From: a virus
Direction: 5' to 3' (one strand)
Length of the DNA stretch: 64,000 bases
IMG/VR virus record: IMGVR_UViG_3300035696_000001
Below the pieces are notes generated by a model that saw nothing but the letters and a program-made list of their open reading frames with translations, was not told where the DNA came from and made no database searches. Positions 6,162-26,458 of the stretch are shown here, piece by piece. Made by a program: the position numbers and the translations under genes. Position 1 is the first letter of the stretch. Every line of letters starts with the position of its first letter.

Positions 6162-6162
6162 G

Positions 6163-9825: not shown

Positions 9826-10802
9826 GAATGCACCATGATTGACGTCCCTACGAAGTCGAAACGGATGCGGACTTCGCGCAAACCGGCTCCAGACAATGCT
9901 TTCCGAAGTCGAGCCTTGTCCTCGGCGTAGAGCATCAAGAATCCCCCGCCTCCTGCCCCGACAAGCTTGCCGCCGAGAGCGCCGTTGTCCAACGCTAGCT
10001 GGTAGAGTTTGTCAATATGGGGGTTCGACATGCCCTCGGAACGCGCCCTCTTATGCAACCAGTGCTCGTGCATGAGGGCGGCGAAAGCACGCAGGTCGCC
10101 TCCCACGAGCGCATCCCGGCTCTGGAGACCAAGCTGTTTGGTGTGGTGCATGTTGTCGAGCATGGCGGCGTCGCTTTGCTTCGATTTGATGTCTTGGTCT
10201 GCAAGGATGCTCGACGCCGAGCGTGCATAGCCCGTGAAGAAAAGAAGCAGATTGTCTTCCAGGTTCGCCAGCGCTTCGCTGTTAATCGGCAACGGGCAGA
10301 AGCTCACGCTTCCGTTCCGGTTGAAGTCAAAGCAGGTCACCCCGCCTATCGCCGCGATGTACTGGTCTTGCTTGCCGCAGTGCTGTCCCAAAATGTCGTG
10401 TTCGATGTGGAACGCCTCCTCCGCGAGGTCTTGGCGCGTGATGGTCTGGTTGTGAAAAAAGTGCAGGGCTTGGAGCAAGGCTGTGGTAAAGCTGCCCGAC
10501 GAGCCTAGCCCGGTGCTATGGGGGATGTCGGCTACGTTAGCTATGTCAATAGAGTTCTGGATGCCCGTGAGCCTAAGAGCCTCGCGGATAACCGGGTGTT
10601 CGATCTGATCTACTGTGTCAACTTCCTCTTGCTTTGAGTATTTTAGGATGATCTTGGACTTGAAGGACTCGTTGACCGTGACATACACGTACCTGTTGAT
10701 CGCTGCGGAGAGGACAAAACCGCCGTGGTCTTGGTAGTAGGACGGCAGGTCAGTACCGCCCCCGCCCAAAGTGACCCTCAATGGTGATCGGACAATAATC
10801 AC
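9822..10802 (-). CDS. hddA: GHMP-family sugar kinase, heptose-7-phosphate kinase (HddA)-like
   Basis: MIIVRSPLRVTLGGGGTDLP N-terminus and PHSTGLGSSGSFTTALLQAL GHMP motif. Confidence 0.7.
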   Translation of the reverse strand: MIIVRSPLRVTLGGGGTDLPSYYQDHGGFVLSAAINRYVYVTVNESFKSKIILKYSKQEEVDTVDQIEHPVIREALRLTGIQNSIDIANVADIPHSTGLGSSGSFTTALLQALHFFHNQTITRQDLAEEAFHIEHDILGQHCGKQDQYIAAIGGVTCFDFNRNGSVSFCPLPINSEALANLEDNLLLFFTGYARSASSILADQDIKSKQSDAAMLDNMHHTKQLGLQSRDALVGGDLRAFAALMHEHWLHKRARSEGMSNPHIDKLYQLALDNGALGGKLVGAGGGGFLMLYAEDKARLRKALSGAGLREVRIRFDFVGTSIMVHS

Positions 10803-10848
10803 TCAATTTAAGCCTCAAATTAGGGCTTGAAAGTCTGCAACATAGGAT

Positions 10849-11658
10849 TTAGCCTTCGTAATCGTTGTTTGGCCGCCCGGACGGAATCAGACCTGCGTCT
10901 ATTGCTTTGGATGGGTCAAGCAGGGTGCTTTTTACGTCTTCTTTTCTGGCGGGTTTGTAGACGACCTCGACTCCGCGAAGCTTTCCGAAATGTTCCGCCA
11001 GGTCGCCGAGGCGGGTGGAATGGCCGTGGGCCAAATTGAACGTCCCGGTGTACTCCTCCCCGCTCGCCCGGATAAGCGCTTTACAGATCAGGTCAACGTG
11101 GATGAAGTCTCGAACTTGGTCGCCGCCGAACACCACGATTGGGTTGTCGTTCTTGAAATGGGTGAGCGCCAGCGTCTCGGCTCTTTCTGGAACGTGGCCG
11201 CCGAAGACGTTTCCGAATCTGGCGATGAAGTTGTTGGGGCACAGACGGTTGATGATGCCCTCGGCTATAAATTTGGATTGGGCGTAGGGGTTCAAGCACT
11301 TGTTCCAATGGGCATCCTCTTCCTTGGCGGGCGTCTCTCGCTCCCCGTACACCGCGCCGGAGGAGGAGAAAATGAACTTCTTCACCGTGTTGTTCTGGAA
11401 AAAGGGAATTAGGTTGAGGGCGTTCACTTGCATCATTTTGTCGGCCAGTTCGACGGAGCCGCCGAGGATGGACAGCGCCCCCAAGTGGAACACCACATCG
11501 AATGTGTGGCCCTGGAGGGTGCTGTAGTCTTGTCCTTCTTTGGCGTCGCACACGGAGATTAAGTCGTATGGAAAAGTCCTTGCGACCGCCTTCAGGAGGT
11601 GCGACCCTATGTAACCCGACGTACCTGTCATCAAAATGTGCATTTGAATCTCCTTCAT
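10849..11658 (-). CDS. NAD-dependent epimerase/dehydratase
   Basis: MTGTSGYIGSHL and YAQSKFIAE. Paralog of 2408..3160. Confidence 0.65.
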   Translation of the reverse strand: MKEIQMHILMTGTSGYIGSHLLKAVARTFPYDLISVCDAKEGQDYSTLQGHTFDVVFHLGALSILGGSVELADKMMQVNALNLIPFFQNNTVKKFIFSSSGAVYGERETPAKEEDAHWNKCLNPYAQSKFIAEGIINRLCPNNFIARFGNVFGGHVPERAETLALTHFKNDNPIVVFGGDQVRDFIHVDLICKALIRASGEEYTGTFNLAHGHSTRLGDLAEHFGKLRGVEVVYKPARKEDVKSTLLDPSKAIDAGLIPSGRPNNDYEG

Positions 11659-12431
11659 TTAACCCCGTATTTTTTCTTCAACTGCTCGTACAGGCTGTCT
11701 TCGGGGTAGTTTTTATTGGGGTTTAGCCCTAGATTGCCGTGTTGCCAATACGAGCAGCGAAGATGGATTGCGCGGGACTTTTCCGGGAAAGACCACGACT
11801 GCCCGCCGCTGACGAACCTCACATACTGCTTCCCGTCGAGGCAGCCTATGGCGTCGAAAACAGCCGAATCGCGATAGTAGTCTTGCAGACCCGCCTTTGG
11901 AACCCATTTTCGGAACAGCCCCGGTCCGATGCCCGCGTTTATGTTGCCTATGATTCTAGTGAGGTCGCACCCTTTTTGCGGGTTCCGGCTTTCGATCTCG
12001 TTGACTATGTTCTGGAGAAAAGGCGCTTCGGCTGGGGCTTTGAAAAGACACCCAGTCAAGTAAGCCGGGTCAAGGAGCGACGAGACACCACCGTCCGGGG
12101 ACTCGCAAAGAAGGACATAGGGTTCCGGGAAGTCGAAGGGCTTCAGGCAGACGATGTCCACATCGACATACCAGCCCCCCTTTTTGCAGATTAGATGAGA
12201 CCGGAAATAGTCGGAAAAGTGGTTTGGGCCGGTGAACCACGTATGAGCATCCTCGGGGACTACCTCGCTTGTGGCATGCACCACCGTGCCCTCGGGGATG
12301 CCCCGGCAGTCCGGGTGCGTGGTGTACAAATGGAACTCGTGCCCGTTGCTCAGAAAGGATCGGATCGAGAGCTTTTCGAGGTTCGTCAGTTCGACCCCAC
12401 ACCATACGCCGTTGATGATCTTGTTGTCCAT
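11655..12431 (-). CDS. GT32-like glycosyltransferase (DXD sugar-binding region)
   Basis: WCGVELTNLEKLSIRSFL..GHEFHLY and DVDIVCLKP DxD. ATG at 12431 is preferred over the TTG at 12464. Confidence 0.5.
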   Translation of the reverse strand: MDNKIINGVWCGVELTNLEKLSIRSFLSNGHEFHLYTTHPDCRGIPEGTVVHATSEVVPEDAHTWFTGPNHFSDYFRSHLICKKGGWYVDVDIVCLKPFDFPEPYVLLCESPDGGVSSLLDPAYLTGCLFKAPAEAPFLQNIVNEIESRNPQKGCDLTRIIGNINAGIGPGLFRKWVPKAGLQDYYRDSAVFDAIGCLDGKQYVRFVSGGQSWSFPEKSRAIHLRCSYWQHGNLGLNPNKNYPEDSLYEQLKKKYGVK

Positions 12432-12439
12432 TGAAACGA

Positions 12440-13084
12440 CTATTTTGCGCCTTTCTGCACCCAAGCGGAGTGGTCTGACAGGTTGTTGTAGATTGGTTGT
12501 TTACCTTGTTTGTGGAAAAACTCTAAGGCCGCTTTCTGGCATCCGGGCCAGAGGTAGAAATCGTCAAAATAGATAAAGCCGCCCGGTACGATAGCGTCAT
12601 AAAATTTTTCCAAGCAAACCCTTTCGGATTCGTACCAATCCGAATCAAGGCTTAGCATTGCGATTTGCGGGACTGCAACAGTCGGAAGGGTATCCTTAAA
12701 CCAACCCGCATGGATGTTGACCTTAGCCATATCTGCTCCGACTTTTTGGAGCACCTCCTTGACCGCGTCAACGCTGCCCTTACAACTACCGACGCAGCTT
12801 TCGGCAGTTACGCCGTTGGGCTGCGGAAGGTCTTCTTTGGTGGGTGTAGGTAGGCCCTCAAAAGAGTCAAATAACCAAACCTTTCTGTTAAACTTGGAAT
12901 TAGCTGCGAAGTGGGCTAAGACAGCGCCCAAGCCGCCGTTCCATACACCGCATTCGACCATATCTCCGGGGATGCCTTCTTCCTCTATTCGGCGTGCTAA
13001 AGGTATGTACTGGCGTACTTGGTCGCCGCAAGCCATAGTATAGGGCTGAACTATCTTTTCAAGTTCTTCGTTTGTTAACATCAC
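12440..13084 (-). CDS. TylF/MycF-family sugar O-methyltransferase
   Basis: ECGVWNGG, DSFEGLP and LSLDSDWYE motifs typical of macrocin-O-MTase-like enzymes. Confidence 0.65.
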   Translation of the reverse strand: MMLTNEELEKIVQPYTMACGDQVRQYIPLARRIEEEGIPGDMVECGVWNGGLGAVLAHFAANSKFNRKVWLFDSFEGLPTPTKEDLPQPNGVTAESCVGSCKGSVDAVKEVLQKVGADMAKVNIHAGWFKDTLPTVAVPQIAMLSLDSDWYESERVCLEKFYDAIVPGGFIYFDDFYLWPGCQKAALEFFHKQGKQPIYNNLSDHSAWVQKGAK

Positions 13085-14121
13085 GCGTTTCCCTTTTCAT
13101 CCAGTTTTGTTCTGTCCGCCAACTGCTGTTCCAGCCTGGCGACTTCCTTGCGCAGGATGCCGATTTCTTCTTCTGATTTGTGGAGTCTTTCCTGATGGAG
13201 GGCGTTCTCAGCTTTTAGTTGCTGCTCCACCTCGGCGACTCTCTCACGCAGGCTGCCGTTATCAGCTTTCAATTTTTCGCACTCAGTAACCAGAAATTGC
13301 ATATATTTTTCCTCGCAGTATCGTGCCTGTATCGTGCACTGCCACCTTGACCATTGGTGAAAGATGAAGTACGGTACGATGTCCGTTGCTTCGTTGTCCT
13401 CTATTTCATTATTCATCATCAATCCGTTCGTCAGTTTTCCGTGCGCCTCTACGAACGGGGCAAACACGAACTTATCTTTATATCGGAAGATTTTTGTTCT
13501 GTCCTTGTACTTGTCCTGGCGGATCAGGACGTTCAACCCCTGTTGGTCGCCGAGGCAGTCATCGTGTGTTGGGTGAAACTTTTCCCTTCGCTTGTCCCTC
13601 AAGCACATCGTGTAAATGTCCCGGCACAGGTCGGCGGCAACGTCCGGCAAGCCTGCGATGACCCCAGCGTTGAGGATTTCCTGTCCCATGAGGGACTCGT
13701 GAACTTCGTGGCCAAAGGCGTCGCAAAGCACCTTGTCATTCTCCTCGTACCGTCCGCTGTAGAGGTGCTCTTCGGAGCCAATAGCCAGGCTGTAGCCGCC
13801 GAGGCTGCCCCGTATCCACTCCATTGGGTTGCGCTGGAACACGACATCCTTGGTGTCGATCAGCAAAACGTAGCGAAGAGCAGTAGCTTCCTTGGCTAAG
13901 ATTTCGGAGATGATGCGGAACCGCGCCATGGCGGCTTCCTCCCCTTTGGAATCGACATCGCAGGTCTCGATGTCGTACGCCTCCAGTTTTTTGTCCTTGC
14001 AGTCAGTGATGAGAATACAGCGCCCGTGGTACCCCGACCACCGCAAAGAAACGACAAAAAACTCCAGTTCCTTCCAACCGTAGCCCGCAGCCATGCCGAT
14101 AATGAGATCATTCTCATTCAT
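13081..14121 (-). CDS. Putative glycosyltransferase-like protein with C-terminal coiled coil
   Basis: N-terminal nucleotide-diphospho-sugar-transferase-like region (LLIDTKDVVF). Last ~80 aa are a heptad-rich coiled coil (LKADNGSLRERVAEVEQQLKAEN..). Function uncertain. Confidence 0.35.
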   Translation of the reverse strand: MNENDLIIGMAAGYGWKELEFFVVSLRWSGYHGRCILITDCKDKKLEAYDIETCDVDSKGEEAAMARFRIISEILAKEATALRYVLLIDTKDVVFQRNPMEWIRGSLGGYSLAIGSEEHLYSGRYEENDKVLCDAFGHEVHESLMGQEILNAGVIAGLPDVAADLCRDIYTMCLRDKRREKFHPTHDDCLGDQQGLNVLIRQDKYKDRTKIFRYKDKFVFAPFVEAHGKLTNGLMMNNEIEDNEATDIVPYFIFHQWSRWQCTIQARYCEEKYMQFLVTECEKLKADNGSLRERVAEVEQQLKAENALHQERLHKSEEEIGILRKEVARLEQQLADRTKLDEKGNA

Positions 14122-14831
14122 TGATGCGCCTTGGGGTTGTCCTTCTCGATATGTATGATTTTGGGGACAAAATCAGGCGTATGCCAGATATGGGGCGCTC
14201 TCCAATAGATACGGTTGGGCGGAAACGCATAGGCCGGTGAAAGAGCTATCGCCGGGGGGTTGTGTTCCAAGTAGCAGTTCCAGTGAGACTCATCTTGCCA
14301 TTTCGCCACGATGCCCCTGCCGTCGTCAATGTCGATGTTGCGGGCGAGAATCTTGCATACCGCCAAATACTCGGGGGCCGAGCCGCCTTGGAAGCAGCCT
14401 TGGTAGTAAAAACGGTGGCTTTGGAGAAACGCTGTCGATTCTCGTCTAGTTTCGACATTCGCCCCCTCGCCGCTGGGGATGTAGTTCCGCTCCACACCGG
14501 GGTGAAGCACCGCTGTAATGCCTTTAGCACAGAATTCTTCTTCGAGAATGGGGGCCACGACCCTCATGTCGATGTCGATGTGCATCAGGTAGTCATAACC
14601 GGCAAGCCAGTCCGCTTGGCTGGATATGGCATGGTAGCGCATCATGCCAGCACGCGGCCACCCCAAATGCGGGTACTCCACGACGCGGGCATCATACGGA
14701 GCTTTGCTGTCCGTGAACAGGACTGGGTCGCAGGGCGGGAAGAACTTCCGCAGCGACTCAATGAGGGGCGGAACGAAGCTCAGGAATTCTTGCTTTCCCG
14801 TCGCGATCAGGATTACGGCAATCTTGCTCAT
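14118..14831 (-). CDS. GT6-family glycosyltransferase (ABO blood-group alpha-1,3-Gal/GalNAc-transferase-like)
   Basis: Start at the internal Met MSKIAVIL, in an ATGA overlap. Aligns with the catalytic region of human GTA/GTB: YLMHIDIDM (DxD), RRESTAFLQSHRFYYQGCFQGG, KWQDESHWNCYLE and ALSPAYAFP. Confidence 0.8.
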   Translation of the reverse strand: MSKIAVILIATGKQEFLSFVPPLIESLRKFFPPCDPVLFTDSKAPYDARVVEYPHLGWPRAGMMRYHAISSQADWLAGYDYLMHIDIDMRVVAPILEEEFCAKGITAVLHPGVERNYIPSGEGANVETRRESTAFLQSHRFYYQGCFQGGSAPEYLAVCKILARNIDIDDGRGIVAKWQDESHWNCYLEHNPPAIALSPAYAFPPNRIYWRAPHIWHTPDFVPKIIHIEKDNPKAHQ

Positions 14832-15508
14832 AAATCGTAGCCGCCCCGGTGCAAAAGTAAGACACCGTGAAAAAACCTGTGCTGCCATCCGGGCACATCG
14901 AAAGGATAGCCCTGATCCACGAGATAGTGACTTACTTCGCACGGACAACCCAACTCGTGGCACGGGTACCCCCGGAACGAAGTCACAGAGCAGCGGTCAC
15001 AGTCAGTTGCCAGCCGCTTCACGTCGTCAACGACGACGAAAGAGTCTGGGGCAAATTTTGCGATGGCGGCAAGTTCAAGCGGAACCTGGAACTCGCATGT
15101 CGTATGGGCATTGTCTCCGAAACAATGAGCGTCGAGCCAGAATAGGACACGCTTGCCGCTCGGAGGCGATGCCCATACCAGTGTCGGCAGGAAGTTTGGC
15201 AGCCAAGCGCCGCTGGAGCCGTGAACGCAGTGAACATTGGGCGCATTTTTGAACCTCTCTGTTGCCTTCTGGTACAAATCGTCACTCAGTTCGATAGTCC
15301 AGATTTCATCAAAATGGTTTTGGCAGGCAGCGGGCATGTTTCCCTTGTACGTTCCCGTTTCGACGAGGACGTTCAGGTCAAAGTGCTCGCCCAGCGCGAT
15401 GAGCAAGTCTCTGCGCCAGTTGTCGGTGGGATGCACCATGTCCGTGCCGCCGTAGCTCTTCCAAAACAACAAATCATTCGTAGTTGCAGGATCGCGAAAG
15501 GTGAACAT
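14828..15508 (-). CDS. SAM-dependent O-methyltransferase (CmcI/Methyltransf_24-like)
   Basis: Start at the internal Met MFTFRD. VLVETGTYKGN and FWLDAHC motifs. Confidence 0.45.
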   Translation of the reverse strand: MFTFRDPATTNDLLFWKSYGGTDMVHPTDNWRRDLLIALGEHFDLNVLVETGTYKGNMPAACQNHFDEIWTIELSDDLYQKATERFKNAPNVHCVHGSSGAWLPNFLPTLVWASPPSGKRVLFWLDAHCFGDNAHTTCEFQVPLELAAIAKFAPDSFVVVDDVKRLATDCDRCSVTSFRGYPCHELGCPCEVSHYLVDQGYPFDVPGWQHRFFHGVLLLHRGGYDL

Positions 15509-16122
15509 TAAAGAACCCTCACGCTGACCGCCGCTTCCCCGCTGTCCCCGATTGTGTGCAGGGCAAGGTATTCGTAGGGGCGTCCTTGGATGAATTCCTG
15601 GAACGCCTTGAACTCGTGCTCCCGCCATCCGGGGTAATCCATGTACTCGTCGAACATGATGACCGTCCCCGGCACAATCTTGGGGCCGAAGTTGTCGAAC
15701 ACCGTTTTGGTGGACGAATAAATGTCGCAGTCGATGTGTATAAAAGAGATCGGACCGGGATGCGACCTTGCGAAATCGGGAAGCGTGTCCGCAAACAGGC
15801 CCTTTACGATCTCTACATTTTCTCGAACTTTGGGCACGTCGCATTTGTTGCGCCCCTTTGGGGCGTTGCCCGGCCAATCCTCTGGCAGCCCTTCAAAGGA
15901 GTCGAAGCCGTAAATCTTGGCGGGCGCTACCAAGTCCGCGAGGCAGTTCAAACTACCGCCTGTCGCCACGCCCAACTCCATGATCAGACCCTCTATGGAG
16001 CGGGCGTCAGTGGAATACCTGTAAAAGTAGTGGCGACCGCTGGGGCGGTAAGAAGAATCGTCTGTGGGAAAGAGAAAGCGTGCGACTGTTTTCCCAGAGA
16101 AATAAAGATTCGAGTCGCGCAT
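15508..16122 (-). CDS. TylF-family sugar O-methyltransferase
   Basis: ELGVATGGS, FDSFEGLPE and IHIDCDIYSST. Confidence 0.6.
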   Translation of the reverse strand: MRDSNLYFSGKTVARFLFPTDDSSYRPSGRHYFYRYSTDARSIEGLIMELGVATGGSLNCLADLVAPAKIYGFDSFEGLPEDWPGNAPKGRNKCDVPKVRENVEIVKGLFADTLPDFARSHPGPISFIHIDCDIYSSTKTVFDNFGPKIVPGTVIMFDEYMDYPGWREHEFKAFQEFIQGRPYEYLALHTIGDSGEAAVSVRVL

Positions 16123-16123
16123 T

Positions 16124-16960
16124 TTATAGTTTTATAGCCGGGACTGTACCCGGCTCCCCCATTTTCACCCACCGCTCGGGAACAACGTCGTCGTAGCGGA
16201 CGGGCGCGTTGCCGAACCATTTCTTGGGTGCGATCACGATTCGGTCGGCCTGTGTGTCACCGAGCCAAGCGCCCCACCAGCCAAACGAGCTATTAGGAAA
16301 GATGGCGTGGCGGCACAGGCTCATCAACCACAAGTCCTCGTGCTCGTGCCCCGGACTGTCGCCGAAGCCCATCTTGTTGTGGTCTACGATTGTGCAGTCG
16401 GCAAACCTCTCCCGGCACCCGTCTGGGTCGTCCGAAAAGACGAAGAATTTCGCATCGGCAATACGTTCGCGTACGTATTGCATCGCCTCTGCATAATAGT
16501 CCCACGTCATGTTGCCGTGGAACGCCGCCTGCCCCGCGCCGAGGTAGTCGGTTCGCCGCACATGGATGAACGCGCTCTGCGGCGCTGCCGCGATTGCGTC
16601 AGCAACCCGCTTGGTCTGCTCGCCGACCGGGTTTCTGAGCGTAAAATCCCTTCGGATCAGGTCGGGTTCTGGCTCAAAGTATTTTTCCGTCTGCCAGCAG
16701 CCCCGGAAATTTGTCCCGTTCGGTACTTTGTAAACTTGCGGATCGAAAATCAGGTGCGATTCGTCGAAAAAAGGCCCTCCGCCTCCCCCGAACCGTACGT
16801 CGCGGACATTGAAGACGTCAAGCCCGTAGGCGCGGTGGCATCCGGGCCCCAAACCTACCTTGTAGAACAAAACATCCTCCCTTCGCACCCGCGAAACGCA
16901 GCGACCGAAAGCGTACTGGAACATCTGGTTGCCCAGGCCTCCATTGAGCCTAACCAACAT
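16124..16960 (-). CDS. GT11 alpha-1,2-fucosyltransferase (FutC/WbsJ/FUT2-like)
   Basis: Canonical motif I GGLGNQMFQYAF. HVRRTDY, FVFSDD and SSFGWWGAWL motifs match H. pylori FutC and E. coli WbnK. Confidence 0.85.
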   Translation of the reverse strand: MLVRLNGGLGNQMFQYAFGRCVSRVRREDVLFYKVGLGPGCHRAYGLDVFNVRDVRFGGGGGPFFDESHLIFDPQVYKVPNGTNFRGCWQTEKYFEPEPDLIRRDFTLRNPVGEQTKRVADAIAAAPQSAFIHVRRTDYLGAGQAAFHGNMTWDYYAEAMQYVRERIADAKFFVFSDDPDGCRERFADCTIVDHNKMGFGDSPGHEHEDLWLMSLCRHAIFPNSSFGWWGAWLGDTQADRIVIAPKKWFGNAPVRYDDVVPERWVKMGEPGTVPAIKL

Positions 16961-17585
16961 TACCCATCTCCCTGTGCTTCTTGTACATCCACGACACGTT
17001 GAAAGTTCGTCCTACAGTAGCGGAACAAAAGTGCGATGTTATCTCGTCGTTGTCACCGTACCGGATGTCGTCTTTCGCGGTGAGCCGACCTTCTGCGACC
17101 GCCGCCCCCACTATTTGGCCGATCCATTTGTCCTCGGCCCACGTATCAGGTTCCAGGCGCACGACCACCTCCATGGCACGCCGCGACATCCAATAGCCTG
17201 CCCCGCCCGATGCCCACGCATACCCGCCCTCCCTGACCCCCGGCACGCCTATCGGCCCGTTGAACCTGCCGATTTGGTCATATCCCTGCGGGTCGTAGGC
17301 AGCTAGCTTGGACATTACTGCGTAGGTGTCCGTGTCCGCTAAAAAAGCGTGGTCGTAGTCGTGCGCCAGTACCCACCCGAATATGGCGCGGGTCTTGTGC
17401 GGCAAGTCCAGATAGGCGTCGCCGCAATCCAACGGCTCCTCGTCCGGCGCAAGTTCGCCCCCGCCCCGCCCAACAAAAAACCTGTAATCAACTGGGCAGT
17501 TCTTCAGCCACGTGTCACGTACGGCTTGGTTGAATCCGTTGCGGCAATCGCGATAGCAGCTTTTTACGGCAATCAGTCTTTTCAC
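16950..17585 (-). CDS. Fringe-like (GT31-type) glycosyltransferase, paralog 1
   Basis: LIAVKSCYRD..VRDTW and DTDTYA DxD. ATGA overlap with the upstream paralog. Confidence 0.55.
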   Translation of the reverse strand: MKRLIAVKSCYRDCRNGFNQAVRDTWLKNCPVDYRFFVGRGGGELAPDEEPLDCGDAYLDLPHKTRAIFGWVLAHDYDHAFLADTDTYAVMSKLAAYDPQGYDQIGRFNGPIGVPGVREGGYAWASGGAGYWMSRRAMEVVVRLEPDTWAEDKWIGQIVGAAVAEGRLTAKDDIRYGDNDEITSHFCSATVGRTFNVSWMYKKHREMGNVG

Positions 17586-18223
17586 AGTATGCCTTTCGCC
17601 TTTTCGTGCACGGCATACAGGTTTGCCCTGTCACGTAGGTTCGTCAAAGAATTCCGTTCGTGGTTGTGACAGGTGATGACGTCGTTGTCGGGCTGGGGGC
17701 CTACCATTGTTCCCCTGTCAGTGCCGATCCTGTACCGGGGATCATGGAACGGTAGGATTCCGGCTTGCCTGAGCACGTAGCGCACCCACCAATCCTCAGC
17801 GCCGGAGCAAGCCGCAATTTCCCCCCTCGCCAAGAGCGCCTCCATCGCCCTGCGGCTGAGCCAATATCCCGTTCCGCCAAAGACGCTGTCGTCCCCCTGT
17901 ACGAATCCCGAATAGTCGTGCCTCTCAAAGCCCGAGGCGAGAAGGCGCGGGACGTGGACGTAGGTGTCCGTATCGCACCGGAACAGGTTGTCGTAGCCGT
18001 TCGCGAGCGCCCACGAAATTGACCCGAGTATTTTCAGACGAAGCTCAGAGCCGCCGCCATCGGGCACGTCCAAGAAGGTCTCGTCTGCTTCCGCATCCGG
18101 CTCCTTGGGGACTCCCAAAAAGAACCTGGTGTCCGCAGCCGGGGCGCTCAGCCACGTGTCACGGATTTGCGCATGGCACCAGCGGTCGCGATGGCAACTC
18201 TCTATGGCGATGAGGGGTTTCAC
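17582..18223 (-). CDS. Fringe-like glycosyltransferase, paralog 2
   Basis: GTG start in a GTGA overlap. VKPLIAIESCHRD..IRDTW and CDTDTYV. Confidence 0.55.
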   Translation of the reverse strand: MKPLIAIESCHRDRWCHAQIRDTWLSAPAADTRFFLGVPKEPDAEADETFLDVPDGGGSELRLKILGSISWALANGYDNLFRCDTDTYVHVPRLLASGFERHDYSGFVQGDDSVFGGTGYWLSRRAMEALLARGEIAACSGAEDWWVRYVLRQAGILPFHDPRYRIGTDRGTMVGPQPDNDVITCHNHERNSLTNLRDRANLYAVHEKAKGIL

Positions 18224-18930
18224 AGCGCACCCGCCGAGAGTTGGTGCGCCCTGTACATCATGCTCGGGTTGTAGGCACCCGTGCCGCAGCCGAGGTGTAC
18301 GCTGATCCCGTCGTATCCGTAGAGTTGGAGACGGTCGCCCTTGAACAGGTAACGGGGGTCGTGGTAGCCGTGCATCCCCAAGGGAAGCAGGATATTTGGA
18401 ATCCAAAGGTCTTCGGCTGGGTTGCCCTTGTTGTCGAGCCGCCTCCAGTCTAAGGGTGCGGCAACGATGGCTTCCATTGCGCGTTTGCTAGTCCAATAGC
18501 CGCATCCCCCCGAACAATAGGGGTAGACCCCTCGGGGATCGCAGTACTCGCTCAGGGTTTGCCCGTCCGCTGGCAGATAGCCTTCCTGCGGATGCAGGGG
18601 AAAGTGGCCCACGTAGTCACTCCGGTCAAAGCCGGAGACGAGCAGACGTCTCGGCGACAGGTAGGTGTCGCGGTCAGCCTTGAACACCCATTCATATTCG
18701 TGCTCAAGCGCCCATTTCCGTATGGCTTGCGACTTTTCCGGCAGGTGGGGGTAGTCATCCGGCACGTCAAGACGCTCCTCGTCGGGGAGCAGCGTCCGGC
18801 TGCCTTGCCCCACGAATATCTTGTAGTCCAGCCCCGGCACCATGTGCTGCATCCACGTGCGCCGCATGGCGTCGTGGCAGCCGTTTGCCGCGTCGCGCTC
18901 GCAACTCATCACGCCTATGAGAATTTTCAC
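18220..18930 (-). CDS. Fringe-like glycosyltransferase, paralog 3
   Basis: GTG start in a GTGA overlap. VKILIGVMSCERD..MRRTW and ADRDTYL. Confidence 0.55.
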   Translation of the reverse strand: MKILIGVMSCERDAANGCHDAMRRTWMQHMVPGLDYKIFVGQGSRTLLPDEERLDVPDDYPHLPEKSQAIRKWALEHEYEWVFKADRDTYLSPRRLLVSGFDRSDYVGHFPLHPQEGYLPADGQTLSEYCDPRGVYPYCSGGCGYWTSKRAMEAIVAAPLDWRRLDNKGNPAEDLWIPNILLPLGMHGYHDPRYLFKGDRLQLYGYDGISVHLGCGTGAYNPSMMYRAHQLSAGAL

Positions 18931-19676
18931 GCCCCCACCCAATCCTTGATGCCCTCTTTCCTCAGCATAATCGTGTGCCCTGCTGCGAAAGCCCGCCTGC
19001 GGAACCGCCCGTAGCGGGGGTCCTGCACGTCCGCCCCGGTGCCCAGCTTGAACGTGTCCACGCTCCAGCCGGGCAGCCACACCGTGACCCTGCCCGCCTT
19101 CTTCATGTGCCAGAAGAACTGCCCGTGCTCCCCGCCTATGGGGCGGACCTCCTCGTCCCACGGCACCCCGCGCAGCGTCGATGCGCGTGCGAGGAACGCG
19201 TTCACCACGAGGTCGCACCGCTGGTAGGGCGACCCGTCCGGCACCAGGCGGATTTCGCGGATCACATTCTTTTCGGCGTCAAAAACAAGATTTGATTCGT
19301 ACGGGTTGCCGTCCACGCGCCCGCCCACCAAGTCGATTTCGGGGTGCGTGTCGAGGATGTCGGCGGCTTTGGTCAAGCTTTCTTTGAACCCTTTGGTCGC
19401 GAAGTCGAAGTCGTCAGCGCCGCAGTACCAGTAAGGCGTCTCGCACAGGAGCACGCCACGGTTGCGCTTCGCCGTCAAGCCCGAGTCGAACGGCAACCAA
19501 GCCCACTGGGTGTTGAGCATGGGCGCACGCGGAGTCAAGTCCATGCCGCTCCCGCTGTCGTCCACGACGATCACTTGGCATTCCGGCAAGCTCATGCGGA
19601 CGCTGTCGAGGCACGCCCGCAGATAGCCCGGACGTAAGAAGGAGGATATAAACACTGAAATTTCATTAAGTGGCAT
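18927..19676 (-). CDS. GT2-family glycosyltransferase
   Basis: ISVFISSF, VVDDSGSG and GLTAKRNRG GT-A motifs. Confidence 0.65.
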   Translation of the reverse strand: MPLNEISVFISSFLRPGYLRACLDSVRMSLPECQVIVVDDSGSGMDLTPRAPMLNTQWAWLPFDSGLTAKRNRGVLLCETPYWYCGADDFDFATKGFKESLTKAADILDTHPEIDLVGGRVDGNPYESNLVFDAEKNVIREIRLVPDGSPYQRCDLVVNAFLARASTLRGVPWDEEVRPIGGEHGQFFWHMKKAGRVTVWLPGWSVDTFKLGTGADVQDPRYGRFRRRAFAAGHTIMLRKEGIKDWVGA

Positions 19677-19809
19677 GTGCCCTCACTTTCTTTTCGCGGT
19701 AACGGCGTGCTTTCTCTGCTCCAGTCAACGGTCTCTCACCTATGCGACGATAAGTACGGTGTCCTCCTATCCTCGCGGAGCCACATGTACGTGTAGTAGA
19801 CCTTGTCCA

Positions 19810-20481
19810 TCACAAATCTCCCCCCACCAACTGCTGGATGGTCTCGAACGGAACCGGCTTGTATTCGTTGCTGGTAAAGTTTTTTCGGCAGGCGTTCGTG
19901 TCGTGTATGCTGGCAATGACGAGCTTGGGGTCGAACAAATCCAATTTCGCCTCGGCAGGCAGTTTCCTCTGCAAATTATAGTCGGCACCCGCAACGATAT
20001 GGTCGAACTTGTTCTGCTCCCAGACGGATTTCCGAAACGCAATAGCCCCCAGCCAGCCGATGGACTTCGGGCTGGTGTACTGCCATGCCTTCTGCATGTC
20101 CTTCCGGTAGTAGTACAACGTGGACGTGCCCGTCATCTGCACCTGCTGCCGGTCGATCATGGGCTGTATCTGGCGTGCAAGGCGGTCTGTTGAATAGACG
20201 TCGTCATCGTCCCAAACGAGGAGAAAAGCCCCAGACGCCAGTTCGATGCATTGGTTGAGTTTGATCCCATGGTTGTAAACGTTCGATTGCCATGTGTACT
20301 TGATCCTCGGGTCATCCGGCAGCAGGGGCTTGACCGGCTCGGTCGAATCGTCAAGTATCAAAAGCTCCACGACCCAGTCAGCGGGGTACTGCTGCGCCTG
20401 AAAGCAGCGGATCGCACGCGGGATGAACCCACAGCGGTTGCGCGTGGGCATTAACGCTGATACGATTAAGGGGCTAGGCAT
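19810..20481 (-). CDS. GT2-family glycosyltransferase
   Basis: VSALMPTRNR and LVWDDDDV. First gene of the island, 133-bp gap to the next gene. Confidence 0.65.
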   Translation of the reverse strand: MPSPLIVSALMPTRNRCGFIPRAIRCFQAQQYPADWVVELLILDDSTEPVKPLLPDDPRIKYTWQSNVYNHGIKLNQCIELASGAFLLVWDDDDVYSTDRLARQIQPMIDRQQVQMTGTSTLYYYRKDMQKAWQYTSPKSIGWLGAIAFRKSVWEQNKFDHIVAGADYNLQRKLPAEAKLDLFDPKLVIASIHDTNACRKNFTSNEYKPVPFETIQQLVGGDL

Positions 20482-20667
20482 GGCATAACTCGCAGTTTGG
20501 GTTGGCCACCAACCCCACGGGCTTGCCGTCCACGAAGACTTCGTATGTTCTGCCGGACACCTCGGGCATTCGAATTTCCCCCTACTTAAAATACGAAAAA
20601 CCAGTAGATTGCCGGGCGTCGGGCTGGTATGCTAGGGATATTATGGTAAGGATCAAGGAGCCTGCCA
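20482..20667. promoter_or_regulatory. Divergent intergenic control region with inverted repeat CTACT-N16-AGTAG (20582..20607)
   Basis: Strand-switch point between the minus-strand glycan island and the plus-strand block. Lower GC; TATTAT and TATGCT -10-like hexamers. Carries the SD and ATG of 20668. Confidence 0.3.
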
Positions 20668-21495
20668 ATGCGAAAGGGAAGTAAGCCAGCCCTGATCTAC
20701 GACGATGCCCGCAAAGGGGCGGACGGTAAGCCGCTGCTCTTGGGCGTCGATCTTTCCTCGGATTTCTGCGCCGAGCACGAATGGGGCATCGCGGGCATCA
20801 AGAGAGCGTTCGGCCTCCTCGACGATCTGAAGGTTTACGGCCTGTGGCGGCGCATCATCACCCGCGTGCCCAAAGGCTTTGCGTGGGTGAAGTTCACATC
20901 CAAGTATTACGTCTCCAGACTAGACGTCGAGCGGGGGCTTGCCAAAAAGGTCGGGGACGTCGAAATCCAAAACGAAGGCTTCGTGTACCATAGCTGGTAC
21001 TGCGAGGAGCCGGAAAAGCTCGCCTTGAACTCCGAACTGTACGGCACCAGCCTGCGCGGCGCATGGTCTGAGGACGACTTTGCCGCAGTGTCGAGCAAGC
21101 CGGAGGAGATCGCAGCCCTGCGGGAAATCTTCGCTGAATTTGAAAAGCAGAACATTGCTTTCTGCTTCTCGGGCACGCTGCCAGTCTTTGAGAACGCCGG
21201 TCTCGTCTTCGCCATCGCCGACCGCCTGCCGGAAGGCGTCACCGAGAACTGGGACAAGCACGACCGCGACCGGGAACAGATCGATAAGGAGTTCGAGGCG
21301 ACGGGGATCGAGAAGCTTTTGGCCGATTCCGGCAAGAGGTACTACGCCCTCTCGCCCAGCCGCCAGAAGGACGGCAGCCTGCACTATTGGCTCAACCCCA
21401 TGGAGCAGCAGCAGAACAACTACGGCTGGTTCACGCTCGAAGACCTGCAAGCGTGGGCACGCGGCGAGGGTCCGATCCCGATGAAACAAAAGTAG
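20668..21495 (+). CDS. Hypothetical protein
   Basis: 275-aa ORF with AGGAG upstream. No motif recognised. Confidence 0.5.
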   Translation: MRKGSKPALIYDDARKGADGKPLLLGVDLSSDFCAEHEWGIAGIKRAFGLLDDLKVYGLWRRIITRVPKGFAWVKFTSKYYVSRLDVERGLAKKVGDVEIQNEGFVYHSWYCEEPEKLALNSELYGTSLRGAWSEDDFAAVSSKPEEIAALREIFAEFEKQNIAFCFSGTLPVFENAGLVFAIADRLPEGVTENWDKHDRDREQIDKEFEATGIEKLLADSGKRYYALSPSRQKDGSLHYWLNPMEQQQNNYGWFTLEDLQAWARGEGPIPMKQK

Positions 21496-21512
21496 CTCAG
21501 TATTAAGTCGAT

Positions 21513-21899
21513 GTGAAGCCATCGACTATCGTTGAAGCGATCCGCGCTCAACTCGGACCGCACCTCGTAAAGCCTAACTACAGAAAGTCCATTCCGAGGA
21601 ATGCCGCGCCTTCTTGGGGTTGCTGCTACGTCGCACATGAAGCCCTTTACCACCTATGGGGCAAGGAGAACGGCTTCACGCCTGTTCGCGTTCCCTATAG
21701 GGTCAGCCGCACCATGACCGGGCAGCATTGGTTCCTTGAGCACCGCCCCTCGGGGCTTCAGGTGGACATCACGGCAGACCAGTTCACGAGCCGGATGCCG
21801 GACTACGAGAAAGCGGTGCCCTGCGGGTTCATGACCAAGAAGCCCTCCAAGCGTGCCCAGCGGATCATTGACGTCGTCCGCAAAAACCTCTCAATTTAG
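21513..21899 (+). CDS. Hypothetical protein
   Basis: 128-aa ORF with coding-like composition. Confidence 0.4.
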   Translation: MKPSTIVEAIRAQLGPHLVKPNYRKSIPRNAAPSWGCCYVAHEALYHLWGKENGFTPVRVPYRVSRTMTGQHWFLEHRPSGLQVDITADQFTSRMPDYEKAVPCGFMTKKPSKRAQRIIDVVRKNLSI

Positions 21900-22444
21900 G
21901 ATTTTCCGTGCTCTTTATTTTCGTGGCGTTTTACCCAGTTGCAGTTAGCGCACAATACTTGGTACATCTGGCTTCTTTCGGGATCGGCAACGGCTTTCTT
22001 GTAGTCGTTATAGGCACCTCCTGCTTCTCGCCGAGTTTTATGGCCTCCCCCATGCTTGTGGTCTACCTGTAAACAGCGGAGGTCAGTGCATCCTTTCGTG
22101 CCATCATCGTTGACCCAATGGCAATTCGGGTCGGAACACCGACCGCCTAAAAGTCTTATAAGTTCTGTGTGTAGGCGCTTATTCCCTGACCAAAATTTTT
22201 CCAGATTTATAGGCTTTTTGGGGCAGGTTTCAGTGAATATCCACGGCTGAAAAGCCCCGGTTTTCCATGCTTCATAGTAGCATTTCCGGCATAGTCCTCT
22301 GGCTATTTTTGGCTGGTGAGTGCAAACAAATCTCATTCCGCTAAATACTGAAATCGCTAGTTGACACGAATTCCCTAAATATGTAGTATCAATAACAGAG
22401 AGACTTTGACGGAGACGTTTTCCCTGCGTTTGCAGGGCGGACAT
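21896..22444 (-). CDS. HNH endonuclease (zinc-ribbon type), homing-endonuclease-like
   Basis: VDHKHGGGHK...LCANCNWVKRH with CxxC pairs. Lone minus-strand gene in a plus-strand block, in a lower-GC island. Confidence 0.65.
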   Translation of the reverse strand: MSALQTQGKRLRQSLSVIDTTYLGNSCQLAISVFSGMRFVCTHQPKIARGLCRKCYYEAWKTGAFQPWIFTETCPKKPINLEKFWSGNKRLHTELIRLLGGRCSDPNCHWVNDDGTKGCTDLRCLQVDHKHGGGHKTRREAGGAYNDYKKAVADPERSQMYQVLCANCNWVKRHENKEHGKS

Positions 22445-22749: not shown

Positions 22750-24174
22750 ATGGCATCACTCAACGCTGCAACCCGTACCGCAAAGACCCCGCTCCGCACC
22801 GCCGAGGGCGGCAGGGCGGTCGGCATCGGCAAGGTCGCGCAGCTTCAGCGCCTGCTGAACGCCTGCCTCCTGTGGGAGGACAACTTCTACTCGGACGGCA
22901 AGAGCGTCGCCGACCTCATGCGCGAGCTTGTGCGCGAAGTCCCAGCCGAGAAGGTCGCGGAGCTTGCGATCAAGGCCCGCGAGGAGCAGAAGCTCCGCCA
23001 TGCCCCGCTGCTCATCGTCTACGAGATGACGCTCGCCTCGAAGGCTCACCGCGAGCTTGTCGGGGAGACGCTCACCCGCGTGATCCAGCGCCCGGACGAG
23101 ATCACCGAGTTCGTCGCCATCTACTACAAGCTCGGCGGCGGGAAGCGCCCGCTCTCGAAGCAGGTCAAGAAGGGCCTTGCCGCTGCCTTCAACAAGTTCA
23201 ACGAGTATGCGCTCGCAAAGTACAACCGCGACAAGGACGTCAAGCTCGCGGACGTGCTGGCGCTCGTCCACGCCAAGCCGAAGGACAGGGAGCAGGGCCT
23301 CCTCTTCGCGAAGCTTGCGAACAAGGACCGCCTGCCGAAGAAGACCAAGTTCGCGCAGTTCCCGGTGGCCGACACCTACCGCTCGCTCGCGAAGAACTTC
23401 AAGGGTCTGGAGACCCCGGACACTTGGGAGGTCGCGCTCTCTGGCGGCGCGGACAAGAAGGAGGCCTTCGAGCGCCTCATCCGCGAGGACAAGCTCGGCG
23501 GCCTCGCGATGATCCGCAACCTGCGCAACATGCAGGAGGCGGGCGTCTCCGACGCGGTCATCAAGCAGGGCCTTGCGCAGATGAACGCCGAGCGCGTGCT
23601 CCCGTTCCGCTTCATCGCGGCGGCGAAGTACGCCCCGAAGTTCGAGGCGCACCTTGAGGAGGCGATGTTCAAGTGCCTTGAGGGGCACCCGAAGCTGCCG
23701 GGCAAGACCGTGCTGCTCGTGGACGTTTCCGGCTCGATGGATCAGCATGTTTCCTCGAAGTCCGACCTGATGCGCGTGGACGCTGCCGTCGCCCTTGCGA
23801 TGCTCCTCCGCGAGGTCGGCGAGGACGTGGTCGTGTATTCGTTCTCGGAACGGGAAGTCCTCGTCCCGACCCGGCGCGGGTTCGCCCTCGCCGAGGCGAT
23901 CAAGGGGTCGCAGCCCCATTCGGGCACGTACCTCGGCCGCTCCGTGACCGCCGTTGCCCGCGCCGAGGGCGACGCCGACCGCGTCATCGCGATCTCGGAC
24001 GAGCAGGCGCACGACAACGTCTCGAACCCATTCCGCAAGACCGAGTCGAAGGCGTACATGATAAACGTGGCAAGCGAAGCTCACGGAGTCGGATACCGTA
24101 ATGGTTGGAATCACATCGATGGATGGTCTGAGGCTGTGGTAGACTACGTAGTTGCTGAAGAGGCAACAAAATAG
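22750..24174 (+). CDS. rsr: Ro60/Rsr ortholog (TROVE domain + vWA/MIDAS)
   Basis: N-terminal TROVE-like region (LLWEDNFYSDGKSVAD..HAPLLIVYEM). C-terminal vWA domain with the MIDAS motif VLLVDVSGSMD. The overlapping ORFs 22743..23657 and 22756..24114(-) are frame artefacts. Confidence 0.8.
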   Translation: MASLNAATRTAKTPLRTAEGGRAVGIGKVAQLQRLLNACLLWEDNFYSDGKSVADLMRELVREVPAEKVAELAIKAREEQKLRHAPLLIVYEMTLASKAHRELVGETLTRVIQRPDEITEFVAIYYKLGGGKRPLSKQVKKGLAAAFNKFNEYALAKYNRDKDVKLADVLALVHAKPKDREQGLLFAKLANKDRLPKKTKFAQFPVADTYRSLAKNFKGLETPDTWEVALSGGADKKEAFERLIREDKLGGLAMIRNLRNMQEAGVSDAVIKQGLAQMNAERVLPFRFIAAAKYAPKFEAHLEEAMFKCLEGHPKLPGKTVLLVDVSGSMDQHVSSKSDLMRVDAAVALAMLLREVGEDVVVYSFSEREVLVPTRRGFALAEAIKGSQPHSGTYLGRSVTAVARAEGDADRVIAISDEQAHDNVSNPFRKTESKAYMINVASEAHGVGYRNGWNHIDGWSEAVVDYVVAEEATK

Positions 24175-24239
24175 TTGATCTGTTTTATTCCGATAATCAA
24201 CCAGAAAAGCTAATTCAGCCCTCGTATTAGAGGGTTGAA

Positions 24240-24785
24240 ATGCTTGGTCAAAGGTTTGGACGTTACACGGTTATTGAGAAAGCGGGCTACCACACATCGC
24301 CCTGTGGGCAGAAGCAAGCGATGTGGAAATGTCGTTGTGACTGCGGTACGGTGAAGACTGTCATTGGTGCAGCGTTACGAAGGGGCAATACTAAGAGTTG
24401 CGGATGCTTAAAGCTTGAGTTACTTCCTTTGTATCGTTTCAAACTCCCAGAAGGGCACTCCATACGGAACAAAGTGCTAGGAACCTATAAACATAGCGCT
24501 AAAGTACGAAAACTGATATGGCAACTTACGGATGTACAATTTGACATTTTGACGCAACAAAATTGCCATTATTGCGGAACGGCTCCGACAACTGTGCGTC
24601 AGATCAAAAACCTGAACGGACCGTTCGTATACAACGGTATCGACCGGAAGAATAATTCAAAGGGGCACACCCCGGACAATGTGGTATCATGCTGCGAAGT
24701 TTGTAATAAGATGAAGCTGACGATGTCAATCGAAAAATTTTTGGCACATGTACAGCGAATCGTTGCTCATATTCCTAGCATCTAA
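24240..24785 (+). CDS. HNH homing endonuclease
   Basis: N-terminal FGRYTV..W.CRCDCG zinc-ribbon module. HYCGT...NGIDRKNNSKGHTPDNVVSCCEVCNKMK HNH motif. Paralogous to the N-terminus of 58246..59388. Lower-GC island. Confidence 0.65.
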   Translation: MLGQRFGRYTVIEKAGYHTSPCGQKQAMWKCRCDCGTVKTVIGAALRRGNTKSCGCLKLELLPLYRFKLPEGHSIRNKVLGTYKHSAKVRKLIWQLTDVQFDILTQQNCHYCGTAPTTVRQIKNLNGPFVYNGIDRKNNSKGHTPDNVVSCCEVCNKMKLTMSIEKFLAHVQRIVAHIPSI

Positions 24786-26451: not shown

Positions 26452-26458
26452 GGGGCTG

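Follow-up and report, generated by a model that had tools for sequence, protein, structure and literature searches.

Why should a bacteriophage carry three adjacent genes for glycosyltransferases (GTs) of family GT31, and what would such enzymes build together? GT31 is the textbook Golgi family of eukaryotes, active in the synthesis of core-1 O-glycans, Lewis/ABH precursors and the proteoglycan linker and in Notch modification, and it comprises beta-1,3-transferases of galactose (Gal), N-acetylglucosamine (GlcNAc) and N-acetylgalactosamine (GalNAc), including C1GalT1, B3GalT6, B3GNT2 and Fringe. The question is raised by positions 16950..18930 of IMG/VR virus record IMGVR_UViG_3300035696_000001, a stretch of phage DNA of 64,000 nucleotides (nt) that was analysed as a whole (the window). 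We found that this interval is filled exactly by three GT31-like genes, W3, W2 and W1, lying back to back in both the list of open reading frames (ORFs) and the reverse complement of 16900..19000, and that a fourth copy, W4, lies ~13 kilobases (kb) from the triplet. With high confidence, all four products are minimal, soluble GT31 catalytic domains that are predicted to be catalytically competent. The four genes, with lengths in amino acids (aa), are as follows:

18220..18930, minus strand: W3, GT31-like, GTG start at 18930, 236 aa, DxD motif DRD, insertion of ~18 aa before the glycine-rich loop (Gly-loop)
17582..18223, minus strand: W2, GT31-like, GTG start at 18223, 213 aa, DxD motif DTD, deletion before the Gly-loop
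16950..17585, minus strand: W1, GTG start at 17585, 211 aa, D84-T-D86, Gly-loop 126-132, xED 150-152, H185
3218..3844, minus strand: W4, ATG start, 208 aa, DxD motif DDD, flanked by two genes for epimerases/reductases of the short-chain dehydrogenase/reductase (SDR) type

The three back-to-back paralogs reported in an initial annotation of this DNA were confirmed, and the fourth copy that it placed at 3218..3844 is real. Paralogy of the four copies is far beyond chance, with pairwise BLASTP E values of 1e-21 to 4e-36, identities of 31-36% and 36 invariant columns in the four-way alignment; for W1-W3 by themselves the E values span 1e-23 to 4e-36. Both the N-terminal pattern and the DxD motif quoted in that annotation are present in the alignment, the former as LIAVKSCYRD..VRDTW in W1, LIAIESCHRD..IRDTW in W2, LIGVMSCERD..MRRTW in W3 and LIAVVTCERL..QRASW in W4, and the latter as DTDTY in W1 and W2, DRDTY in W3 and DDDTF in W4. 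As for the lengths given earlier, 211 aa stands, but 214 and 237 aa had included the stop codon, and the real lengths are 213 and 236 aa; all three values were reproduced by independent gene calls on public contigs with identical DNA. Were the frames of W2 and W3 extended upstream, they would run 180-290 nt into the preceding gene, and these longer starts are unsupported because the orthologs all begin with M-K-x-L-I.

All four genes lie in one minus-strand string of ~24 genes (~1046..20481, ~19.4 kb), hereafter the operon. The junctions between a GT2-like gene and W3, between W3 and W2, and between W2 and W1 each read GTGA, so that of the overlaps named earlier (GTGA, GTGA, ATGA) the ATGA was wrong, and the stop codon of W1 (TAG, 16950) overlaps the ATG of a downstream GT11 gene by 11 nt (ATGTTGGTTAG). 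Overlaps of 4 nt of the form NTGA occur at 11 of the 24 junctions across the whole operon, suggesting that they are an operon-wide habit and not special to the triplet. The strict translational coupling previously read from them is compatible with 4-nt overlaps, but the same overlaps are the operon's general style.

Which branch of the GT-A enzymes do these proteins belong to? In a search of a four-paralog profile against the sequences in the PDB, Drosophila C1GalT1 (7q4i; E = 8.8e-11) scored best, followed by human B3GalT6 (6.3e-8) and B3GalT5 (3.3e-3), whereas Manic Fringe reached only E = 0.2. Modelled with AlphaFold2 from 119 sequences of the family, W1 reached a mean predicted local distance difference test score (pLDDT) of 95.3 and a predicted template modelling score (pTM) of 0.92, and its Foldseek matches in the PDB at ranks 1-19 were all GT31 structures (E values of 1e-11 to 5e-9), with a CHSY3-CHPF heterodimer as the best match and B3GalT6, B3GNT2, Manic Fringe and C1GalT1 among the others; other GT-A families first appeared at 7e-7, a hundred-fold gap in E value. 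Against Pfam, W4 alone scored above the 23-bit cut-off of PF01762 (Galactosyl_T), with 27.4 bits, and only W3 matched PF02434 (Fringe), at 16.6 bits and thus under the cut-off of 21 bits. Most of the best 120 of the 233 metagenomic homologs that were found carry a precomputed PF01762 assignment, and none of the four paralogs could be assigned to a family in PHROGs. The earlier label 'Fringe-like (GT31-type)' therefore holds for the GT31-type, GT-A part, while Fringe is a relative at the superfamily level only; aligned and compared with Fringe, C1GALT1 and PF02434, the four copies are closer to the core-1/beta3-galactosyltransferases, and both the profile matches and the top 19 fold matches place them in GT31 and not in a non-GT family.

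Judging from these profile and fold matches, W1-W4 would be inverting, metal-dependent GT-A enzymes of CAZy family GT31. Their identity to eukaryotic GT31 enzymes is 15-22%. None has a signal anchor or stem, each beginning directly at beta-strand 1 (MK.LIAV), and their maximum hydropathy over 19 residues is 0.43-0.61; a type II membrane topology with a stem is typical of eukaryotic GT31 enzymes but is not a CAZy requirement.

The structure paper on C1GalT1 names four GT-A landmarks, the DxD (D181/D183), the Gly-rich loop, the xED with the base D255, and the C-terminal His H324, and reports that the D255A mutant of the Drosophila enzyme (DmC1GalT1) is inactive, making D255 a proven catalytic base (PMC9065035). 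In a HMMER alignment, D84 and D86 of W1 fall onto D181 and D183 of DmC1GalT1, and D152 falls onto D255. The DxD, with the contexts LADTDTY (W1), RCDTDTY (W2), KADRDTY (W3) and KLDDDTF (W4), the Gly-rich loop and the xED (AED) are present in all four copies. Among 119 family members, D86 and G128 are invariant, D84 is found in 100, and E151, D152, R23, W26 and Y131 are each at least 90% conserved; in addition, the RxTW region (VRDTW, IRDTW, MRRTW and QRASW) aligns with VKRTW of C1GalT1 and IRSTW of B3GalT6. The C-terminal His (H185 in W1), whose match to H324 is based on the B3GalT6 alignment and not on superposition, is retained in W1, W2 and W3 and in their subfamilies, whereas in the W4 subfamily it is replaced by Cys-Asp in 33 of 36 members, which may alter metal coordination. 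The loss of DxD or other catalytic residues that would mark pseudo-enzymes was thus not found, and retention of the motifs in all copies suggests that none of the four is an obvious pseudo-enzyme.

Although the array had been described as a triplication, a recent event is not borne out by the data. The paralogs are mutually 28-42% identical, whereas W1, W3 and W4 have much closer relatives in other phage contigs (W1 70% identical to P0021, W3 70% to P0015, which was found in contig L052, and W4 83% to P0006), suggesting that the array is old. W2 is the most divergent copy, with a best outside match of 45% identity, and the smallest neighbour-joining clade holding W1-W3 comprises 59 of 121 leaves. 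By these comparisons, the triplet combines subfamilies that are ancient and diverged. Insertions and deletions cluster ahead of the Gly-loop, where W3 has 18 additional residues and W2 its deletion, and in the surroundings of the xED helix, and loops flanking the Gly-loop and the catalytic base shape the acceptor sites of GT-A enzymes. We propose that the paralogs are old and functionally diverged, and that they may differ mainly in their acceptor-reading loops.

Arrays of this type are not confined to the window. A scan with a hidden Markov model (HMM) of 43 IMG/VR loci revealed 1-6 copies per locus, with arrays of 2-6 same-strand copies in many of them. For example, a related phage (contigs L054-L056; W1 ortholog 69% identical) has three tandem copies, of the W3, W3 and W1 types in L054, plus a fourth, whereas L052 has W3- and W4-type copies only and L057 a W1-type copy only. 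W1 orthologs of 66-70% identity lie beside GT11 genes in L054 and L057, and in L052 a W3 ortholog is followed by GT6 and then by GT11. Within 10 kb of the arrays, GT11 genes were found at 13 and GT6 genes at 7 of the 43 loci, and a GDP-L-fucose-synthase-like (Fcl-like) gene accompanies the arrays at 17.

The family is large: a threshold of E<=1e-30 yields 1,327 clusters, and one of E<=1e-10 yields 5,007, in a representative library of 1.84 billion proteins clustered at 50% identity. Of 134 newly returned representatives, 34 had two or more hmmsearch stretches of the GT31-like domain, some of these being fragments of one domain; P0121 (708 aa), however, is a clear fusion of two full domains (289-465 and 515-692). 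P0126, P0131 and others were listed with it as two-domain GT31-like fusions, and the giant proteins P0139 (2159 aa) and P0140 (2123 aa) contain up to seven weaker GT31-like stretches. Domain fusion is classical evidence that modules act together, and the multi-domain fusions and the conserved GT11/GT6 neighbourhood make sequential action of the paralogs more plausible. A search of genome contigs with the four-sequence alignment returned only five loci in metagenome-assembled genomes (MAGs), from Terracidiphilus, two Acidobacteriaceae, Gemmataceae and one alphaproteobacterium.

What else does the operon encode? Its repertoire includes about ten GTs (four GT31, two GT2-like, GT11, GT6 and GT32-like among them), with methyltransferases and sugar-nucleotide enzymes for sugars of the heptose, fucose-like and uronate types. 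In the direction of transcription, the features other than W1-W4 are as follows (NDP, nucleoside diphosphate; UDP, uridine diphosphate):

20640..20668, minus strand: best sigma-70-like promoter match (10/12), weak, in the divergent intergenic region upstream of the operon
19810..20481, minus strand: GT2 glycosyltransferase, 223 aa, first gene of the operon (PF00535, 51.9 bits)
18927..19676, minus strand: GT2-like glycosyltransferase, 249 aa, directly upstream of the triplet (PF00535, 21.4 bits against a cut-off of 23.3)
16124..16960, minus strand: GT11-family protein (alpha-1,2-fucosyltransferase type), 278 aa (PF01531, 73.5 bits; phrog_2644, 6.8e-49)
15508..16122, minus strand: (sugar) O-methyltransferase of the TylF/Methyltransf_24 type
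14828..15508, minus strand: protein of ~226 aa without a family match in Pfam or PHROGs
14118..14831, minus strand: GT6-family protein (alpha-1,3-Gal/GalNAc-transferase type), 237 aa, with a D-I-D motif (PF03414, 60.5 bits; phrog_3317, 7.9e-40)
13081..14121, minus strand: 346-aa protein with a heptad-like, Glu/Lys-rich, coiled-coil-like C-terminus
12440..13084, minus strand: TylF-family O-methyltransferase (PF05711, 147.8 bits)
11655..12464, minus strand: GT32-like glycosyltransferase (Gly_transf_sug, DXD), start codon uncertain
10849..11658, minus strand: short SDR-type NDP-sugar epimerase/dehydratase
9822..10802, minus strand: GHMP kinase, best match HddA (D-glycero-D-manno-heptose-7-phosphate kinase), under the equivalog cut-off
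8722..9825, minus strand: fusion of SIS (GmhA-like isomerase) and HAD-IIIA (GmhB-like heptose bisphosphate phosphatase)
8009..8725, minus strand: transaldolase/FSA family protein, a possible source of sedoheptulose-7-phosphate
7140..8012, minus strand: nucleotide-sugar 6-dehydrogenase, UDP-glucose dehydrogenase-like (TIGR03026, 191.6 bits, above cut-off)
6163..7143, minus strand: GFO/IDH/MocA oxidoreductase
5493..6161, minus strand: short-chain dehydrogenase/reductase
4809..5489, minus strand: phrog_3603 protein
3829..4803, minus strand: SDR epimerase/reductase, best match GDP-L-fucose synthase (under cut-off), its end overlapping the W4 start by 16 nt
2408..3160, minus strand: short GalE-like SDR epimerase
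1551..2336, minus strand: HNH homing-endonuclease ORF (phrog_12434/phrog_655), between the last epimerase and the small Ser/Thr-rich protein
1046..1582, minus strand: small Ser/Thr-rich protein, 170-178 aa, between the glycan genes and a gene for a 1794-aa structural protein

The GT2-like gene at 18927..19676, which falls just under the Pfam cut-off, has orthologs in L052 and L054 that were called Glycos_transf_2. In the GT6 enzyme, the motif H-I-D-I-D-M contains a DxD, as in mammalian GT6 enzymes; the metal-independent GT6 of Bacteroides has NxN. No Pfam, NCBIfam or PHROG family was found for the 346-aa protein, which occurs alongside GT31-like arrays at 8 of the 43 viral loci; it could represent an additional transferase or a scaffold. 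The genes at 8009..10802 form a heptose branch, consisting of the transaldolase, the GmhA(SIS)-GmhB(HAD) fusion and the HddA-like GHMP kinase. The HNH ORF is missing at the same place in a colinear sister contig (L004, 11500..12290), suggesting that it is a mobile insertion, and the small Ser/Thr-rich protein is, by its position, a candidate partner or acceptor. Scans for promoters and terminators gave site counts not above those of shuffled sequences, with nothing promoter- or terminator-like inside the triplet and a single good promoter-like site, the one ahead of the first GT2 gene. No protein of the cluster contains a hydrophobic 19-mer above a Kyte-Doolittle (KD) value of 1.42, and none matched the families of flippases, polymerases, initiating transferases or oligosaccharyltransferases.

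On the same strand, the cluster is followed by the 170-aa protein and then by the 1794-aa protein, which has a region matching the virion-structural family phrog_1645 (E = 1.7e-11), passes the left end of the window (12801..18185 in L004) and had no informative homolog among GenBank phages. In L052, two phrog_1645 proteins (429 and 392 aa; 5845..8386) lie directly upstream of GT2, GT2, a W3 ortholog, GT6 and GT11. The short cluster of L057 consists of GT2, a W1 ortholog, a homing endonuclease, GT11 and an epimerase-methyltransferase, and is flanked on one side by genes for a tail fibre (phrog_2631, 5e-54), the major capsid protein and a head-tail adaptor and on the other by neck and tail genes; its endonuclease-like ORF, between the W1 ortholog and GT11, is of the NUMOD3 type. 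The GT cluster thus adjoins virion structural genes in three phage contexts (window/L004, L052 and L057), and the phrog_1645 proteins found beside clusters in two phages are candidate glycan acceptors or fibres. Adjacency to structural genes together with the lack of export machinery favours cytoplasmic glycosylation of a virion protein.

What phage is this? A megablast search of 14000..22000 against 50,697 GenBank phages gave no match. The helicase of the window shares 52.9% identity, across 96% of its length, with its counterpart in the Tunturiibacter phage Tunturi_5, a jumbo myovirus of Acidobacteriota with a genome of 309 kb and a guanine-plus-cytosine (GC) content of 58.4% (PMC11924767). 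Sequence comparison suggests an uncultured, large phage distantly related to Tunturi_5, with an acidobacterium of the Acidobacteriaceae as its probable host, because of the helicase likeness and the homologs in Terracidiphilus and Acidobacteriaceae MAGs. The same DNA recurs in several metagenome assemblies of ENA, Logan (SRA-run) and JGI, on contigs of up to 196 kb. Two Tunturi_5 proteins named 'galactosyl transferases', gp300 and gp301, were considered as homologs and rejected as unrelated (hhalign probability <=1%).

Other genes of the window, which mark it as phage DNA, encode a helicase, ThyX, a dCMP deaminase, homing endonucleases and an RNA-repair-type module at 22750..36317, the last comprising:

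22750..24174: TROVE/Ro60-like protein with a vWA domain
29817..30902: polynucleotide kinase
32316..33434: RNA ligase
34992..36317: tRNA CCA-nucleotidyltransferase (CCA-adding enzyme)

The window yielded no tRNA genes, compared with 43 in Tunturi_5. A group-I-intron-endonuclease-like ORF lies at 30947..31738. At 57188..59388 on the plus strand, thyX (203 bits) is followed by a 454-aa ORF with an HNH region (134-303) and a dCMP deaminase region (312-447), which overlaps the end of thyX by ~220 nt and may be a homing endonuclease inserted in or fused to a deaminase gene, or an artefact of ORF calling.

How might the three enzymes work together? We lean, with moderate confidence, towards a reading in which the GT31 paralogs build a complex glycan stepwise in the cytoplasm, likely on a virion protein. 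Stepwise action of the paralogs on one glycan we regard as probable, whereas for a virion protein as the acceptor the chances fall slightly short of even. The operon would be transcribed from ~20650, and ribosomes terminating at the GTGA junctions would re-initiate, giving roughly equimolar GT2-like protein, W3, W2, W1 and GT11. Each GT31 paralog would use a UDP-sugar and Mn2+ (bound by the DxD plus the C-terminal His), with the xED Asp as the base, to add one beta-linked sugar to a different intermediate of the same heteroglycan in the cytoplasm. The product of W1, probably a beta-galactoside, would then be fucosylated by the adjacent GT11, and the chain capped or branched by GT6 and O-methylated by the methyltransferases; the acceptor would most likely be a virion surface protein (fibre or structural) encoded beside the cluster. 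In a bolder version, which is speculative and in our estimate unlikely, the operon would be a self-contained, membrane-independent factory of an Acidobacteriota phage that places a methylated, histo-blood-group-like glycan, Fuc-alpha-1,2-Gal-beta-1,3-R (Fuc, fucose) with an alpha-Gal/GalNAc cap, on virion fibres.

Several points weigh against stepwise synthesis on a virion protein. W2 (19.5 bits), W3 (17.3 bits) and W1 (13.9 bits) score below the 23-bit cut-off of PF01762, and donor, linkage and acceptor are extrapolated from eukaryotic GT31 enzymes as distant as the identities above indicate. Virion proteins are linked to the cluster through guilt by association, in no more than three contexts, and gene order need not mirror reaction order. 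A sugar-1-phosphate nucleotidyltransferase for the heptose branch was not identified in the operon. In L054 the slot of W2 is taken by a second W3-type copy, suggesting that the array is plastic and that the paralogs are perhaps alternatives to one another. Finally, the lack of transmembrane segments is also compatible with synthesis of a host surface glycan, because the GTs of O-antigen synthesis are mostly soluble or peripheral.

This last point belongs to the most serious competing explanation, which we nevertheless consider unlikely, namely that the operon remodels a surface polysaccharide of the host (lipopolysaccharide O-antigen, capsule or acidobacterial exopolysaccharide) during infection. 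A new repeat unit would be assembled on host undecaprenyl-phosphate, with the initiating transferase, flippase, polymerase and ligase supplied by the host, and superinfection might be blocked or progeny kept off debris. The mix of GT2, GT11, GT6 and methyltransferases is indeed typical of bacterial O-antigen clusters (e.g. E. coli O86 wbn), and the homologs of GT11 and GT6 in PHROGs are categorised as 'moron, auxiliary metabolic gene and host takeover'. In addition, Tunturiibacter hosts produce extracellular polysaccharide (PMC11924767). However, Wzx, Wzy, Wzz, an initiating phosphoglycosyl transferase and a ligase are all absent from the 24 genes, and the cluster lies within or beside virion structural modules in all three contexts. 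Moreover, seroconversion is classically a prophage trait, whereas no integrase or other lysogeny marker was present among ~50 scanned ORFs of the window, which has ~30 more, and for a phage of 196 kb or longer a temperate lifestyle is still conceivable.

That the paralogs are alternatives rather than consecutive steps, serving different acceptors or sites or being interchangeable variants that diversify the glycan between strains, seems to us rather improbable. Such turnover would fit the varying copy number and subtypes (W3/W3/W1 plus one in L054, W3 plus W4 in L052, W1 in L057 and 1-6 copies in the IMG/VR loci) and the homing endonucleases found inside or beside the clusters, but the two-full-domain fusions and the tight 4-nt coupling argue for stoichiometric co-operation, and the conserved adjacency of GT11 and GT6 fits chain extension. 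Very improbable is a hetero-oligomer in which one or two paralogs would be non-catalytic partners of a single active GT31 enzyme, as in Cosmc/C1GalT1 or CHPF/CHSY3. Pairs of a GT31 enzyme and a pseudo-enzyme are known, Cosmc lacking the DxD (PMC9065035), the CHSY3-CHPF heterodimer heads the fold matches of W1, and 4-nt coupling would favour equimolar synthesis of partners; yet the DxD, Gly-loop and xED base occur in all four copies and the C-terminal His in W1-W3, at positions conserved within each subfamily, and the pseudo-enzyme idea was rejected on the grounds of these conserved motifs. Hypermodification of the phage DNA with a glycan against restriction (cf. glucosyl- or arabinosyl-hydroxymethylcytosine) can scarcely be credited and was likewise rejected, for although some virus GTs are known to attach diverse glycans to DNA (Pyle et al. 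2024, as cited in PMC12619734) and the window has nucleotide-metabolism genes, its thymidylate synthase is a plain ThyX (203 bits, cut-off 87.9) instead of a hydroxymethylase of the ThyA type, the neighbourhood of the cluster contains no gene for a hydroxymethylase or for base modification, the cluster sits beside structural genes, and GT31, GT11, GT6, TylF methyltransferases and a heptose pathway are enzymes of glycoconjugates rather than of DNA modification.

What, then, is new here? The enzyme family and glycan clusters of phages are both already known, and as enzymology the triplet is ordinary; what makes it interesting is its setting in a phage and how large the pathway is. New are the extent of the phage GT31 branch, its habit of forming arrays and fusions, and the unusually large pathway around it. 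The branch is missing from the 50,697 deposited phage genomes, in which neither W1 nor W4 had a tblastn match at E<=1e-3, from PHROGs, and from the papers returned by the single literature search made, on GT31 together with phage, none of which was relevant; a 'Fringe-like' UniProt entry from an uncultured myovirus exists already. Phages of soil and peat harbour a large branch of minimal, soluble GT31 enzymes that had not been described before, which extends the range of phage-encoded glycobiology and offers compact, easily expressed beta-glycosyltransferases for glycoengineering. The findings also point to complex glycan decoration of virions or host surfaces in phages of Acidobacteriota, a host group whose viruses are barely known. 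Should the operon be a self-contained factory, it would be a phage counterpart of giant-virus machinery, more elaborate than any protein-glycosylation system so far known from phages, and its soluble 210-aa GT31 modules would represent a reservoir, in viruses of prokaryotes, of a family otherwise seen as essentially eukaryotic.

How do these genes compare with known systems? The best profile matches of the phage copies, C1GalT1 (T-synthase, PDB 7q4i) and B3GalT6 (PDB 9sp7), share with them the GT-A fold (template modelling (TM) score 0.72 over the whole W1 protein, for the model), the motifs RxTW, K-x-D-x-D-T-Y, SGGxGY and AED and, in W1-W3, the C-terminal His. However, the phage copies, at 208-236 aa, lack the signal anchor, the stem and the disulfide-rich lumenal additions and presumably reside in the cytoplasm; in W1, W2 and W3 the central residue of the DxD is T, T and R, the W4 subfamily has Cys-Asp in place of His, and the phage set includes no Cosmc-like inactive partner. 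Fringe (Manic Fringe, PDB 2j0a) has the same superfamily fold as W1 (Foldseek, 5e-10), but no phage copy scores above the PF02434 cut-off, and the phage genes lack a context of epidermal growth factor (EGF) domains and O-fucose.

In the synthesis of ABH histo-blood-group antigens, a GT31 beta-3-galactosyltransferase is followed by a GT11 alpha-1,2-fucosyltransferase and then by a GT6 alpha-1,3-Gal/GalNAc-transferase, and E. coli O86 wbn is a bacterial mimic of this pathway. The phage operon likewise contains GT31, GT11 and GT6, with W1 directly upstream of GT11 and GT6 two genes further, a resemblance at the level of families that we take as a lead rather than a result. The E. coli O86 cluster has a GT2-type beta-3-galactosyltransferase and Wzx/Wzy, whereas the phage operon is without Wzx/Wzy, and in contrast to O-antigen or capsule clusters of the Wzx/Wzy type in general it encodes no polytopic membrane proteins and gave no matching Pfam hits.

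Mycobacteriophages reportedly carry only few GT genes, of other families, compared with the roughly ten GTs, four of them GT31, the methyltransferases and the nucleotide-sugar pathways encoded here. Their gene layout is similar, with phage GT genes beside structural genes, and the glycan has been proposed to be placed on virion proteins inside the cell. Specifically, GTs encoded by mycobacteriophages put glycans on the capsid and tail-tube (Freeman et al. 2023, as summarised in PMC12619734). Giant viruses (chloroviruses, and Megavirinae with their fibril glycans) have self-encoded glycosylation gene clusters (PMC9614988, PMC10117803). Both groups offer precedents for the virion glycosylation proposed for the operon. 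As in the phage operon, host-independent GTs, sugar-nucleotide enzymes and methyltransferases are encoded by the virus, and those of giant viruses have capsid or fibril proteins as their targets; among viral proteins, W1 comes closest in fold to domains of Pithovirus, Cedratvirus and Dasosvirus called 'Fringe-like' and to one protein of an uncultured Myoviridae member. Giant viruses, however, are Nucleocytoviricota that infect eukaryotes, whereas the operon described here belongs to a tailed bacteriophage and differs from theirs in its repertoire of enzymes and sugars.

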